Part shown: piece by piece, positions 26,910-44,032 of the stretch
How positions within the stretch are numbered: position 1 is the stretch's first letter
Layout of the letters: each line of letters opens with the position of its first letter
From: Mustelus asterias
Lineage: Eukaryota
NCBI RefSeq assembly: GCF_964213995.1
Contig: NC_135808.1
Span: 85,994,001-86,058,000, forward strand
Reading direction: 5' to 3'
DNA length: 64,000 nucleotides
Translations under genes and position numbers: made by a program
Notes under the pieces: model-generated
The model's input: only the letters and a program-made list of their open reading frames with translations
Databases searched by the model: none
What the model was told of the DNA's origin: nothing

Positions 26910-27253
26910 AGAAACATAGAAACATAGAAACCATACAGTGCAGAAGGAGGCCATTCGGCCCATCGAGTCTGCACCGACCACAATCCCACCCAGGCCCTAC
27001 CCCCACATATTTACCCGCTAATCCCACTAACCTACGCATCTCAGGACTCTAAGGGACAATTTTTAACCTGGCCAATCAACCTAACCCGCACATCTTTGGA
27101 CTGTGGGAGGAAACCGGAGCACCCGGAGGAAACCCACGCAGACACGAGGAGAATGTGCAAACTCTACACAGACAGTGACCCGAGCTGGGAATCGAACCCG
27201 GGACCCTGGAGCTGTGAAGCAGCAGTGCTAACCACTGTGCTACCGTGCCGCCC
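26910..27253 (-). mobile_element. Full-length, young HE1-like V-SINE
   Basis: Intact A/B boxes (tagcacagtgg, ggttcgattcc), V-domain, (tttctatg)n tail and CpGs largely retained. Confidence 0.93.
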
Positions 27254-27618
27254 TTTTGCTACATTAATGACATAATTAGTATGATCACCCAGATTAAGCT
27301 CATGGAGGAAATTTGTTATTGATGTTCTGCTTAACAGCCATTATTTTTTATTCATTTTTTCGTCAAAAGAACACACAATTTTTTTTCAGTTTGAAACAGG
27401 AATCTATGAGTTAGCCAGAATCGCTTTCAGTACAAAATGTTTTGTGAGCGAGAGGTGAGAGAGAGCCAGGTGGCATATGAGGGAATGCAAGTCATGCATT
27501 GAAAAAATAAATGTTCAATCAACAAGCAAAGAAACAACGTTATACTCTAGTTTGTTCTGCCTGGACCTTCAATTTGATAAATAACCTTAAAGGTCTTATT
27601 TTCACATATTCTCAGTTC

Positions 27619-27925
27619 TTTTTTTTAAATCCAATTCAATCAAATCAAGTCCAATTCAGAGTCTCAACAAGTTGAGACATTCCCGATCCAAGCTGACAAG
27701 ACAGGGCTCTCACCTCCTGTCTTGGGCTTGATCTACATGATCCAAGCTGATTGGAGTAGGCATTGCACCTCCTCCAAGGCTTGATCTCATTTGCATCTTA
27801 GCCAAAAGGCCGAGATGCCGCTTTAAAAAATTGCTTCAAATGAAGCTAAAATGCAACCTAATGACTTCAATCAAGTACAGAATGTCGATACTACACTTGA
27901 TCTTAGCCAAAAGGCCGAGGAGCAA
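27619..27925 (-). mobile_element. U2 snRNA-headed retroposed element (candidate U2-derived SINE / chimeric retrocopy)
   Basis: 27925-27887 matches U2 nt ~2-40 (ctcggccttttggctaagatcaagtgtagtatc); second U2 stem-loop I copy at 27793-27818; A8 tail; direct repeat (a)gttctt at 27614-27620 and 27925-27931. Confidence 0.8.
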
Positions 27926-28302
27926 GTTCTTGATGTGTGATTTTTTGTAGTGCCTTAATTTTCTGCTATTATCCATCTCCCCCTTCATTTTAAGCAGAAG
28001 TACAGGTGAACCAAATGAATTTTTATGCTGATAATGTGTTTTCTAATTTACACATGCAACATTAGTGGGTCACTCCAGGTACACAGGTTTGTTAGAGTGG
28101 AAAAAAACAAATATGTCTTAAATACCCCAAATATGTCTTAAATTCGGGCAGCATGGTCGGTGCAGGCTTGGAGGGCCGAAGGGCCTGTTCCTGTGCTGTA
28201 ATTTTCTTTGTACTCTTTGTACTGGCAAATTGCTAAAACCAGCTTGCTTAAATTGCACAAGATAATTTTGAGAGAGAAAAGTCATTCAACCTATATCAAG
28301 TC

Positions 28303-28582
28303 ATTTATTTATTAGTGTCACAATTCACATTAACACTGCAATGAAGTTATTGCGAAAATCCCCTTGTCGCCACACTGCAACACCAGTTCAGCTACACTGA
28401 GGGAGAATTTAGCATGGCCAATGCACTTAACCAGCATGTCTTTCGGACCGTGGGAAGAAACCCACACAGACCCAGGAAGAACATACGGACCCCACACAGA
28501 CAGTGACCCAAGCTGGGAATCAAACCCAGATCCCTGGCGCTGTGAGGCAGCAGTACTAACCACTGTGCCACCATGCCGCCCA
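28303..28582 (-). mobile_element. V-SINE with the alternative tail
   Basis: Head gggcggcatggtggcacagtggttag; tail gtgtggcgacaagggga...cttcattgcagtgttaatgt...ctaataaa. Confidence 0.88.
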
Positions 28583-28640: not shown

Positions 28641-28712
28641 TTCCCTGACCGAGAATCAAACCCAGGCTGCGGCGATAAAAGCACTGAATCCTAACCACTA
28701 GACCACTAGAGA
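28641..28712 (-). pseudogene. tRNA-Glu pseudogene
   Basis: 72 nt colinear with vertebrate tRNA-Glu (TCCCTGGTGGTCTAGTGGTTAGGATTCGGCGCTYTCACCGCCGCGGCCCGGGTTCGATTCCCGGTCAGGGAA) with ~10 transitions, including the anticodon and the T-loop C. Confidence 0.85.
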
Positions 28713-39515: not shown

Positions 39516-40208
39516 AAGCTGCCAACTCAGTGCAGTACTGAGGGAATGCTGCACTATCAGAAATGCCATCTTTCAGTTGAGACATTAAACCAAAGCTCGG
39601 GCTGCCCTCTCAGGTTTTCACATAATAGTGCTCGCTGAGAAGCTCTCCTGAAATTACAGCCAAATTTTCAAGTGCAGCAGGAAACAAAGCTTTTTTTATT
39701 GCATTTATTTTTAACGTTTTTTTAAAAACACTCGTGCTAAGACCTGTACCGTATTTCTATAGTCTGGGAAGGGTTTTTATTTTAACTTTAAAAGTCAGTT
39801 ACCTGGGAGGTTCCCCCTCATTGTTCCACTGGAGCAAGCAGAGAGGGAGTGATTGGAGGCAGGAGTGCTGGTGAGAGATTGATTGAATTATTTATTTATT
39901 TAATTAGTCAGTTCGTGTGCGTTTTTTTTTGGCCTTTACTTTTGTAGTAGTATTTTTCTTAAGTTTAAAGTGAAAACTGGAAGTGAGTTGCTAAGGAGTC
40001 TGGGAAGGGTTTTTTAAGCGCGCAAAGTATAAAAGGTAGGCTGCAGTATACAGCGGGCAGCGTCGGGAGCGGGCAGGGGAGTGTGTGGGAAGCAGAGTGT
40101 GAGCTATAAGGGCTTTGGCTCACAGGGCTTCGGGGGACAGGGCGAGCAGGGGTGAGTTTAATTCATTTTTGCTGTTTCTACCTGGTACTGGCAAGGTATC
40201 TAGAGGGG

Positions 40209-41135
40209 ATGGGTGTGCAGGCAGTGCTATGTTCCTCTTGCACTATGTTTGAGGTGAGGGACGACGACAGTGTCCCTGCTGATTACATCTGTGGGAAGTG
40301 CACCCATCTGCAGCTCCTCCAAAACCGTGTTAGGGAACTGGAGCTGGAGTTGGATGAACTTAGGATCATTAGGGACGCAGAGGTGGCCATAGACAGAAGC
40401 TTTAGGGATACAGTTACTCCGAGGAATGAAAACAGATGGGTGACGGTGAGAGGGGCTGGGAGGAAGCTGTCCGTGCAGGGATCCCCTGTGGTCGTTCCCC
40501 TTAGCAACAAGTATTCCGCTTTGGATACGGTTGAGGGGGATGACATACCAGTGGTGAGCCGCAGTGAGAGGATCTCCAGCACTGTGTCCGTCTCTGTGGC
40601 TCGGGAGGGTAAGGGGCAGAGCGGGAGGGCAATAGTTATTGGGGACTCGTTAGTTAGAGGGATAGATAGGAGGTTCTGTGGCAGCAAAAGAGACTCACGG
40701 ATGGTATGTTGCCTACCGGATGCCAAGGTCCGTGACGTCTCGGACTGTGTTTTCCGGATTCTGAAGGGGGAGGGGAAACAGTCACAAGTCGTGGTACACA
40801 TTGGTACCAACGACATAGGTAAGAGAAGGGACGGGGATTTAAAACAGGAATTTCGGGAGCTGGGCTGGAAGCTGAAAGCCAAGACAAAACATGTGGTCAT
40901 CTCTGGTACGTTGCCGGTGCCACGTGATAGCAAGTTGAGGAACAGGGAGAGAGTGCAATTAAACATGTGGTTGCAGGGATGGTGTAGGAGGGAGGGTTTC
41001 AGATACGTGGATAATTGGAACACATTCTGGGGAAGGTGGGACCTGTACAAACAGGACGGGGTGCACCTGAACCAGAGGGGCACCAATATCCTGGGAGGGA
41101 AATTTGATACGGCTCTTCAGGGGGGTTTAAACTAA
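40209..41135 (+). CDS. CR1 ORF1p: zinc finger, coiled coil/leucine zipper, SGNH esterase domain (308 aa from the first ATG)
   Basis: CSSC..CGKC; LQNRVRELELELDEL; SGNH blocks IGDS, HIGTND and DGVHL. Confidence 0.93.
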   Translation: MGVQAVLCSSCTMFEVRDDDSVPADYICGKCTHLQLLQNRVRELELELDELRIIRDAEVAIDRSFRDTVTPRNENRWVTVRGAGRKLSVQGSPVVVPLSNKYSALDTVEGDDIPVVSRSERISSTVSVSVAREGKGQSGRAIVIGDSLVRGIDRRFCGSKRDSRMVCCLPDAKVRDVSDCVFRILKGEGKQSQVVVHIGTNDIGKRRDGDLKQEFRELGWKLKAKTKHVVISGTLPVPRDSKLRNRERVQLNMWLQGWCRREGFRYVDNWNTFWGRWDLYKQDGVHLNQRGTNILGGKFDTALQGGLN

Positions 41136-44032
41136 TTTGTCTGGGGAGTGGGAAAAGGAGTTGTAGTCCAGAAGTCAGTGTTGAGGGTGGTGAGGTATTG
41201 GGGAAGATATCAAGGCCAAGGGTGGGTACCGGTAGACAGGAAGGTGGGTTGAAGTGTGTCTACTTCAATGCAAGGAGCATCCGGAACAAGGTAGATGAAC
41301 TTGGGGCGTGGATTGGTACTTGGGACTATGATGTTGTGGCCATTACGGAGACGTGGGTAGAACAAGGACAGGAATGGTTGTTGGACGTTCCGGGGTATAG
41401 ATGTTTCAGTAAGTGTAGGGAAACTGGTAAAAGAGGTGGAGGAGTAGCATTGTTAATCAAGGATAGTTTAACGGCTGCGGAAAGGCACTTCGAGGGGGAT
41501 CTGCACACTGAGGTAATATGGGCTGAGGTTAGAAATAGGAAAGGAGCAGTCACATTGTTAGGAGTTTACTATAGGCCCCCAAATAGTAATAGAGATGTGG
41601 AGGAAGAAATTGCTAAGCAGATTATGGATATGTGTGGGGGTCACAGGGTAGTTGTCATGAGGGACTTTAACTTTCCAAATATTGATTGGAACCTTTGTAG
41701 GTCAAATAGTTCGGATGGGGCAGTTTTTGTGCAGTGTGTGCAGGAGGGTTTCCTGACACAATATGTGGATAGGTCGACAAGAGGTGAGGCCACATTGGAT
41801 TTGGTACTGGGAAATGAACCGGGCCAAGTGTTAGATTCGGTGGTGGGAGAGCACTTTGGAGATAGTGACAACAATTCAGTGTCTTTTGTTATTGCAATGG
41901 TGAGGGATAGGGCCGTACGGCAGGGCAAGGTTTACAATTGGGGGAGAGGTAATTATGATGCGATTAGGCAAGAATTAGGGGGCATAAGTTGGGAACAGAA
42001 ACTGTCAGAGAAAGGCACTAATGAAAAGTGGAACTTTTCCAAGGAACAAATACTGGGTGTCCTTGATAGGTATGTCCCTGTCAGGCAGGGAGGAAATGGC
42101 CGAGTGAGGGAACCATGGTTCACGAAAGAGGTGGAATGTCTTGTGAAAAAGAAGAGGGAAGCTTATGTAGGGATGAGGAAAGAAGGTTCAGATGGCTCGA
42201 TTGAGGGTTACAAGTTAGCAAGGAACGAGCTGAAAAAGGGGCTTAGGAGAGCTAGGAGGGGACATGAGAAGTCCTTGGTGGGTCGGATCAAGGAAAACCC
42301 CAAGGCTTTTTACTCTTATGTGAGGAATAAAAGAATGACCAGGGTGAGGTTAGGGCCGGTCAAGGACAGTAGTGGGAACTTGTGTATGGAGTCAGTAGAG
42401 ATAGGAGAGGTGATGAATGAATACTTTTCTTCAGTGTTCACCAAGGAGAGGGGCCATGTTTTTAAGGAAGAGAAGGTGTTACAGGCTAATAGGCTGGAGG
42501 AAATAGATGTTCGGAGGGAGGATGTCCTGGCAGTTTTAAATAAACTGAAGGTCGATAAGTCCCCTGGGCCTGATGAAATATATCCTAGGATTCTTTGGGA
42601 GGCAAGGGATGAGATTGCAGAGCCTTTGGCTTTGATCTTTGGGTCCTCACTGTCCACGGGGATGGTGCCAGAGGACTGGAGACTGGCGAATGTTGTTCCT
42701 CTGTTTAAGAAAGGGAATAGAAATGACCCTGGTAATTATAGGCCGGTTAGTCTTACTTCGGTGGTTGGTAAATTGATGGAAAAGGTCCTTAGGGATGGGA
42801 TTTACGACCATTTAGAAAGATGCGGAATAATCCGGGATAGTCAGCACGGTTTCGTGAAGGGCAAGTCGTGCCTCACAAATTTGATTGAATTTTTTGAGGA
42901 GGTAACTAAGTGTGTTGATGAAGGTAGGGCAGTTGATGTCATATACATGGATTTTAGTAAGGCGTTTGATAAGTTCCCCCATGGTCGGCTTATGATGAAA
43001 GTGAGGAGGTGTGGGATAGAGGGAAAGTTGGCCGATTGGATAGATAACTGGCTGTCTGATCGAAGACAGAGGGTGGTGGTGGATGGAAAATTTTCGGATT
43101 GGAGGCAGGTTGCTAGTGGAGTGCCACAGGGATCAGTGCTTGGTCCTCTGCTCTTTGTGATTTTTATTAATGACTTAGAGGAGGGGGCTGAAGGGTGGAT
43201 CAGTAAATTTGCTGATGACACCAAGATTGGTGGAGTAGTGGATGAGTTGGAGGGCTGTTGTAAGCTGCAAAGAGACATAGATAGGATGCAAAGCTGGGCT
43301 GAAAAATGGCAAATGGAGTTTAACCCTGATAAATGTGAGGTGATTCATTTTGGTAGGACTAATTTAAATGTGGATTACAGGGTCAAAGGTAGGGTTCTGA
43401 AGACTGTGGAGGAACAGAGAGATCTTGGGGTCCATATCCACAGATCTCTAAAGGTTGCCACTCAAGTGGATAGAGCTGTGAAGAAGGTCTATAGTGTGTT
43501 AGCTTTTATTAACAGGGGGTTGGAGTTTAAGAGCCGTGGGGTTATGCTGCAACTGTACAGGACCTTGGTGAGACCACATTTGGAATATTGTGTGCAGTTC
43601 TGGTCACCTCACTTTAAGAAGGATGTGGAAGCGCTGGAAAGGGTGCAGAGGAGATTTACCAGGATGCTGCTTGGTTTGGAGGGTAGGTCTTATGAGGAAA
43701 GGTTGAGGGAGCTAGGGCTGTTCTCTCTGGAGCGGAGGAGGCTGAGGGGAGACTTAATAGAGGTTTATAAAATGATGAAGGGGATAGATAGAGTGAACGT
43801 TCAAAGACTATTTCCTCGGGTGGATGGAGCTATTACAAGGGGGCATAACTATAGGGTTCATGGTGGGAGATATAGGAAGGATATCAGATGTAGGTTCTTT
43901 ACGCAGAGAGTGGTTGGGGTGTGGAATGGACTGCCTGCAGTGATAGTGGAGTCAGACACTTTAGGAACATTTAAGCGGTTATTGGATAGGCACATGGAGC
44001 ACACCAGGATGATAGGGAGTGGGATAGCTTGA
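41108..44032 (+). CDS. CR1 ORF2p: APE endonuclease and reverse transcriptase (frame open from 41108; no ATG until 41624)
   Basis: YFNARSI, ITETW, YRPP, (R)DFN, LDL, SD(N); RT motifs NYRPVSL, DFSKAFD, PQGSVLGP and FADD. Confidence 0.95.
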   Translation, partial: YGSSGGFKLICLGSGKRSCSPEVSVEGGEVLGKISRPRVGTGRQEGGLKCVYFNARSIRNKVDELGAWIGTWDYDVVAITETWVEQGQEWLLDVPGYRCFSKCRETGKRGGGVALLIKDSLTAAERHFEGDLHTEVIWAEVRNRKGAVTLLGVYYRPPNSNRDVEEEIAKQIMDMCGGHRVVVMRDFNFPNIDWNLCRSNSSDGAVFVQCVQEGFLTQYVDRSTRGEATLDLVLGNEPGQVLDSVVGEHFGDSDNNSVSFVIAMVRDRAVRQGKVYNWGRGNYDAIRQELGGISWEQKLSEKGTNEKWNFSKEQILGVLDRYVPVRQGGNGRVREPWFTKEVECLVKKKREAYVGMRKEGSDGSIEGYKLARNELKKGLRRARRGHEKSLVGRIKENPKAFYSYVRNKRMTRVRLGPVKDSSGNLCMESVEIGEVMNEYFSSVFTKERGHVFKEEKVLQANRLEEIDVRREDVLAVLNKLKVDKSPGPDEIYPRILWEARDEIAEPLALIFGSSLSTGMVPEDWRLANVVPLFKKGNRNDPGNYRPVSLTSVVGKLMEKVLRDGIYDHLERCGIIRDSQHGFVKGKSCLTNLIEFFEEVTKCVDEGRAVDVIYMDFSKAFDKFPHGRLMMKVRRCGIEGKLADWIDNWLSDRRQRVVVDGKFSDWRQVASGVPQGSVLGPLLFVIFINDLEEGAEGWISKFADDTKIGGVVDELEGCCKLQRDIDRMQSWAEKWQMEFNPDKCEVIHFGRTNLNVDYRVKGRVLKTVEEQRDLGVHIHRSLKVATQVDRAVKKVYSVLAFINRGLEFKSRGVMLQLYRTLVRPHLEYCVQFWSPHFKKDVEALERVQRRFTRMLLGLEGRSYEERLRELGLFSLERRRLRGDLIEVYKMMKGIDRVNVQRLFPRVDGAITRGHNYRVHGGRYRKDIRCRFFTQRVVGVWNGLPAVIVESDTLGTFKRLLDRHMEHTRMIGSGIA

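Follow-up and report, generated by a model that had tools for sequence, protein, structure and literature searches.

Among described elements, the closest to the one reported here are SINEU-1, -2 and -3, which the accessible portion of Kojima 2015 (PMC4494074) places in crocodilians alone, with none elsewhere, and ties to Tx1-Mar and a Mariner target. The same portion leaves open how snRNA-headed SINEs, whose heads hold no internal promoter, are transcribed, and states that upstream elements drive Pol II transcription of U2 itself. U2 genes are also the target of LINEs. Keno, in excerpts of PMC4640811 and PMC4494074, carries an APE endonuclease and inserts at U2 38/39, and Utopia, which has a restriction-like endonuclease, uses the same U2 target position and is reported to have weakened specificity in crocodilians (PMC4640811, in part). 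A further parallel is offered by R2 and the R2/R1 SIDEs of Drosophila (Eickbush and Eickbush 2012, PMC3414825, in its accessible part), in which non-autonomous elements lie at their partner's site in a multicopy RNA gene and are transcribed with that host gene, much as we propose for the present element.

By its descriptive features, and not by descent of its body sequence, the element is SINEU-like and lies outside crocodilians. It shares with SINEU-1, -2 and -3, as the parts of PMC4494074 at hand describe them, a length below 500 bp, a head derived from U1/U2 (here U2), a second internal U2 piece, a fixed structure in multiple copies, a poly-A tail, TSDs, tandem insertion, internal oligo-T and a Tx1-clade partner; mobilisation by that clade is indicated by the common U2 +38/39 site and its relaxed consensus, evidence that is indirect here as it is there. 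It differs from them in that its partner is Keno-type, that copies sit at +1 in U2 genes behind U2 upstream DNA, and that an antisense arm may mask its head. We therefore favor, at a probability of roughly 0.8, the reading that this is a SINEU-type non-autonomous retroposon, mobilised by a Keno-type Tx1 LINE, for which copies in U2 genes serve as Pol II source genes. In the literature covered, with subscription journals, Repbase and Dfam outside its scope, we found no report of a SINE with a U2 head from cartilaginous fish; the accessible text of PMC5499810 makes no mention of snRNA, Tx1 or SINEU, and that of PMC5786205 adds nothing.

The window, a 64,000-nucleotide stretch of Mustelus asterias DNA, carries an element of about 305 bp on its minus strand (Table 1). 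An earlier note made from these letters alone had described a U2 head of about nt 2-40, a second copy of stem-loop I, a perfect inverted repeat and an A8 tail, and each was found in place. The head begins at U2 +2/+3 (27925/27924) and matches the genome's own U2 at 36/37 positions over U2 4-40, and the element scores 48.2 bits against Rfam U2, for which the gathering score is 46. Its high degree of structure also stands, with a fold z of -4.71 for the 318-nt strand and 0/100 shuffles equally stable, and the resemblance between the two hairpin units is real in the window's subfamily (0/1000 shuffles reach the score). The 7-bp duplication does lie where it was claimed, but is weak on its own and short for the family; with a family median of 15 bp and a caller threshold of 9 bp, which it does not reach, its identification as a TSD is plausible. 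About 70 nt behind the head had been called unrelated sequence, a description that fails for some 40 nt, which form an imperfect antisense arm to the head. Elsewhere in the window, near 27000-27260 and 28300-28580, the element has tRNA-derived SINE-like repeats on either side, a tRNA-like match of 28.2 bits, slightly below the gathering score, lies at 28641-28712 (-), and a LINE unrelated to the element occupies 40110-44032 (+), its GDSL-esterase ORF1 and APE+RT ORF2 forming an architecture that we take to be CR1/L2-like.

Table 1. Features of the element in the window (window coordinates).
Feature	Position	Strand	Remark
5' copy of 7-bp target-site duplication (TSD)	27925..27931	-	last base perhaps common to U2 +2
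U2 snRNA head, U2 +3 to +40	27887..27924	-	includes branch-point-pairing bases; 36/37 identity to the genome's U2 over U2 4-40
Subfamily-variable loop and antisense arm	27854..27886	-	27880-27854 pairs with head 27917-27891
Short hairpin and T/A run	27819..27853	-	Sm-consensus-like but no match; no free left-monomer family
U2 stem-loop I, second copy	27793..27818	-	own closing stem
Hairpin unit 1	27736..27789	-	outer stem, 3-nt bulge, inner stem, variable loop
Hairpin unit 2	27681..27735	-	related to unit 1; both-sided change of one pair between subfamilies
Perfect 8-bp inverted repeat	27661..27678	-	near-invariant among subfamilies
3' end	27627..27660	-	AAAGTA, a motif common to the Keno 3' end and other subfamilies, is absent from the window's subfamily
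A8 tail	27619..27626	-	last two A's double as TSD bases
3' copy of TSD	27614..27620	-	

This element is a copy of a young family with thousands of members, A-tails and TSDs of about 15 bp. A search of the genome (3.68 Gb) with the element returned 2,766 candidates, 40 of which were scored, and the 39 besides the window copy are near-full-length at 95-98% identity. The window's head-body junction has 480 exact matches in the genome and an internal 18-mer of the element has 5,356, with none for the reversed control of either, so the body is not single-copy; a single-copy body had been named beforehand as counting against the proposal. Since 84 of the 107 near-full copies sampled contain that 18-mer, the copy number is put at about 6,800, as a lower estimate. 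The 107 copies, a sample biased to young copies, fall into subfamilies A (57, including the window's), B (16), C (12), D (5) and E (4), with 13 others, and mean identity to the consensus is 96-99% in subfamilies A-E. TSDs of at least 9 bp were called in 59/107, a few of the calls being head-derived artefacts, whereas random pairing gave 35 in 500 draws; an exact-match caller found TSDs in 52/122 copies. The start lies at U2 +1 in 30/107 copies and at +2 in 11/107 (41/107 together). Copies are also clustered, with a second copy no more than 1.5 kb away at 9/29 loci taken in genome order, and some interrupt the U2 head of another copy or are stacked head to tail at one site (L141, L109, L087, L099, L113). 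One further subfamily (L198-L200, L202-L205), more diverged and distinct in its first loop, is probably older than A-E. Among 24 listed public runs, 20 contain at least half of the words sampled from the element (12 studies, nine organism codes, one possibly the source sample) and four contain next to none; no RNA run with element words is among the 24.

The true U2 genes of this genome lie in arrays on C24, with units of 1,833 bp and 8,035 bp. Within the 8,035-bp unit lies a LINE whose ORF1 has a zinc knuckle and which encodes APE, RT and zf-RVT domains, its ORF2 interrupted in that copy; its 5' end is U2-derived, and its 3' side is followed by U2 38-191. The APE domain, by which it differs from Utopia, and the insertion point at U2 38/39 both agree with the published description of Keno and suggest that the LINE is Keno-type; in a protein search it matched only unnamed vertebrate LINE proteins, among them a Heterodontus record with a local match of 70%. 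A Keno/Tx1 partner had been predicted for the element, and one of Keno type is present at the expected U2 position. Its 3' end has 912 candidates in the genome, of which 23/40 scored are dispersed at 96-98% identity, and 6/13 of the dispersed copies fetched have TSDs of 11-21 bp. This degree of identity among dispersed copies points to a Keno that has relaxed specificity and is roughly as old as the short element. At C24:44.81-44.94 Mb (L067) stand about 16 repeats of the 8,035-bp unit, in which an intact U2 gene is accompanied by the interrupted Keno lying in a split U2; the 3' ends of Keno there score 100% identical, an array amplification of a dead LINE. A second Keno-like family, about 84% related and followed by U2 from about position 40, occurs at C24:41.74-41.76 Mb (L069, L070) and at L061 and L066. 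In the main U2 array (L062 3124-3330 and 4973-5179; L063, L064) are units with short tandem duplications at U2 ~18-37, which are about 92% identical to U2 downstream and are probably defective variants.

The element and Keno insert at the same point. The 3' end of the element followed by U2 from position 38 has 11 matches genome-wide, 15-154 nt in length, with none for the control, and at C24:43.06 Mb (L065) one U2 gene holds an element, a truncated Keno and another element in a row, with duplicated U2 38-55 between. Target preference away from U2 was assessed in a set of dispersed sites from which loci chosen for lying in U2 were removed and in which a few tandem or head-derived sites remained. 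Here RY/A (the slash marking the nick) occurs at 21/31 sites, compared with 147/504 background positions (p = 2.5e-5), and mean matches to the six U2 bases before the nick are 2.58 versus 1.52 for background (p = 5e-5). TT/A, the L1-type insertion motif, occurs at 4/31 of these sites, with no enrichment. The dispersed sites thus resemble a relaxed form of the U2 Keno site, unlike the L1 site, although the bias is weaker in subfamily A alone (8/13 with RY/A, p = 0.026). The survey of possible partners behind this comparison considered Keno, with other Tx1/L1 families outside it. As in Keno (PMC4494074 and PMC4640811, in part), U2 resumes at 38/39, the 5' end is U2-derived and TSDs are of similar length, and most element subfamilies have a short 3' motif in common with it. 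The expectation of a partner sharing the 3' end holds to the extent of a tail only 6-12 nt long, with AAAGTA near the 3' end of 54/122 copies, and fails for subfamily A, from which the motif is absent.

Several origins for the 3' body were tried and rejected. For derivation from U2 41-191, alignments to U2 44-102 and 117-183 are suggestive to the eye, but 28-406 of 1000 shuffles reach their scores over 12 tests; Rfam gives no U2 match in 27614-27792, and no significant match to the U2 3' domains was found in the element beyond the two 5' pieces. For an internally deleted Keno, at least 50/500 shuffles reach the score in all 15 UTR-versus-body tests, and 712/3000 random 25-mers reach that of an anchored 25-nt Keno-tail test. 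The element is non-coding, unlike Keno, and has no significant homology to the Keno UTR beyond the head and the short tail, so that the body is not simply the 3'UTR of the local Keno; a body of that kind was the other outcome that the earlier note had named as counting against its proposal. For a dimer of free monomers, 11 matches were obtained to a left half that ends in a lengthened A run; 10 of them run on into the right half, and the remaining match stops without a TSD. A search of Rfam with the element gave no match to a ribozyme family. In this it differs from the SIDEs, which the accessible part of PMC3414825 describes as internal deletions of LINEs with a 5' ribozyme; the element's body is not Keno-derived, and its dispersed copies number in the thousands.

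Eight copies lie at U2 +1 behind U2 upstream DNA, five of them behind a near-complete promoter region. The end of the main U2 promoter (promoter A) has 54 matches, and behind one of them the element stands at +1. In a 122-copy tree this copy is without close relatives, so a promoter link does not by itself make a copy a master; as a candidate master it was rejected for having no daughters. A second U2 gene type on C21 scores 175 bits against Rfam U2 in a 448-bp unit. The end of promoter B, defined solely by position upstream of 4 intact U2-like genes, has 16 matches, followed at +1 by the element in 7, Keno in 5 and intact U2 in 4. Of the seven element copies, four retain at least 235 nt of the 257-nt spacer and three retain 32-93 nt. 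Promoter-linked loci include C21:28.06 Mb, C14:62.23 Mb, C1:80.33 Mb and C8:80.29 Mb. Composite units of spacer and element on C1, C6, C7 and C14 have TSDs, read by eye from the flanks, of 10, 16, 13 and 18 bp, and no TSD was seen in the flanks of a fifth unit on C8. Because these composite units are bounded by TSDs, RNA of element-bearing U2 arrays was retrotransposed, spacer DNA included. The locus of the second gene type at C21:28.05-28.08 Mb (L180-L194), where U2 is about 10% diverged in its 3' half, is compact, heavily invaded by Keno and inverted in places, with 4 intact promoter-linked genes seen. Source-type copies combining U2 upstream DNA, element and U2 remainder had been predicted and do exist, and the 11 matches at U2 38+ together with the eight copies at +1 bear out the view of a non-autonomous element that sits in U2 genes and has dispersed copies. 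In the 122-copy tree the eight promoter-linked copies are scattered over non-A clades, and the 61-member clade of subfamily A includes none of them; the one nearest the window copy belongs to the sister group of that clade and differs at 25 columns. The source of subfamily A may be unassembled, lost, or behind another promoter.

These observations suggest a cycle in which Keno would nick U2 genes at +38/39 and, with less precision, similar sites elsewhere. On insertion into a U2 gene, the element's own head (U2 1-40) would replace the 5' end of the gene and, since the U2 Pol II promoter lies upstream, the copy would inherit that promoter; standing at +1, it could then act as a Pol II-transcribed source gene. 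Keno proteins, acting in trans, would reverse-transcribe the source RNA into dispersed sites with TSDs of about 15 bp, and the dispersed copies, including that of the window, would be promoterless dead ends.

An unlikely alternative retains the Keno partner but draws the RNA mainly from read-through of an upstream U2 unit, Keno or host genes, the +1 ends arising by template jumping or 5' truncation. Read-through RNA does exist, given that TSD-bounded units start upstream of the promoter, and two copies (L174, L176) have an extra U2 5' piece ahead of a promoter remnant; repeated head addition by template switch is described in the accessible part of Kojima 2015 (PMC4494074), and for subfamily A the tree yields no source gene. 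Yet among 77 copies with a locatable +1, the common upstream sequence is U2 spacer, U2 pieces or the tails of neighboring elements and nothing else, and the head-body junction is constant within each subfamily, unlike what independent template jumps would give.

We consider it very improbable that the element is instead an ordinary SINE whose internal Pol III promoter arose in U2-derived sequence, so that any copy could be a source. Scans with the A-box and B-box consensuses and the Sm motif gave an A-box match in the second stem-loop I copy of all five consensuses, about 120 nt inside the element, and two B-box matches in the consensus of subfamily A, whose spread without a visible promoter-linked copy such a promoter could account for. 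There is no B box in B-E, however, and in each of the five consensuses T occurs in runs of 4-5 at three or four places, the earliest of them inside the first 20 nt, and such runs would end Pol III transcripts; T runs in every consensus and a B box solely in A argue against Pol III. None of the five thus has the canonical arrangement of internal A and B boxes with no early oligo-T.

Folding bears on a reading that we hold to be less probable still, in which host selection maintains the structure of a functional host small RNA, an snRNA variant derived from U2, and the dispersed copies are its processed pseudogenes. Eight representatives, which include three single copies, were used because the consensus from alignment folding of the full 122-copy set was poor, with 35 pairs. 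Their folds are strong and strand-asymmetric (z -5.4 to -9.8, the sense strand being more stable than the antisense), as a host RNA might be, and subfamily differences fall mostly in unpaired columns (46/103 versus 42/202 paired, p = 2.8e-5), a bias that is supportive only, because the structure was derived from the same rows. Among 28 variable pairs, 15 are kept, 4 of these with changes in both partners, and the other 13 are broken in one row or more. Against a host gene stand the many subfamilies with different loops, an Sm consensus that finds no match in the element, and the promoter-linked copies, which are recent Keno-site insertions with an A-tail and U2 remainder and not a stable gene.

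Under the preferred reading of a Keno-mobilised retroposon, the structure may serve the element itself. The antisense arm, about 40 nt in length and following the U2 head on its 3' side, forms 23 pairs with the head, 6 of them G-U, and 0/500 shuffled arms are equally stable. Two U2 gene controls lack such pairing (154/500 and 194/500 shuffles as stable), two of three Keno 5' ends fold back over their U2 head (0/500 and 2/500), and the third (L185) gives no head-masking signal (339/500). From these predicted folds, we infer that the arm may mask the U2 head and thereby protect either the U2-headed transcript or the host spliceosome. More tentatively, and somewhat less probably than not, the family could be a self-renewing parasite of snRNA promoters: element and Keno would make U2 genes their own source genes, read-through RNA from the 448-bp array would carry a promoter to new chromosomes, seeding sources and subfamilies, and antisense arms would have evolved separately so that the transcript escapes snRNP processing or spares the spliceosome.

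Our findings have practical consequences for annotation and comparison, in that decayed copies score above the Rfam gathering threshold for U2, so that U2 annotations will be inflated, and young copies could be insertion markers in related species. Given candidate source loci within U2 genes, and a LINE with the same target in the same genome, promoter use, 3'-end formation and trans-mobilisation are each testable. The family thereby bears on the transcription question left open for SINEU, to which the probable answer here is the borrowing of the U2 promoter.
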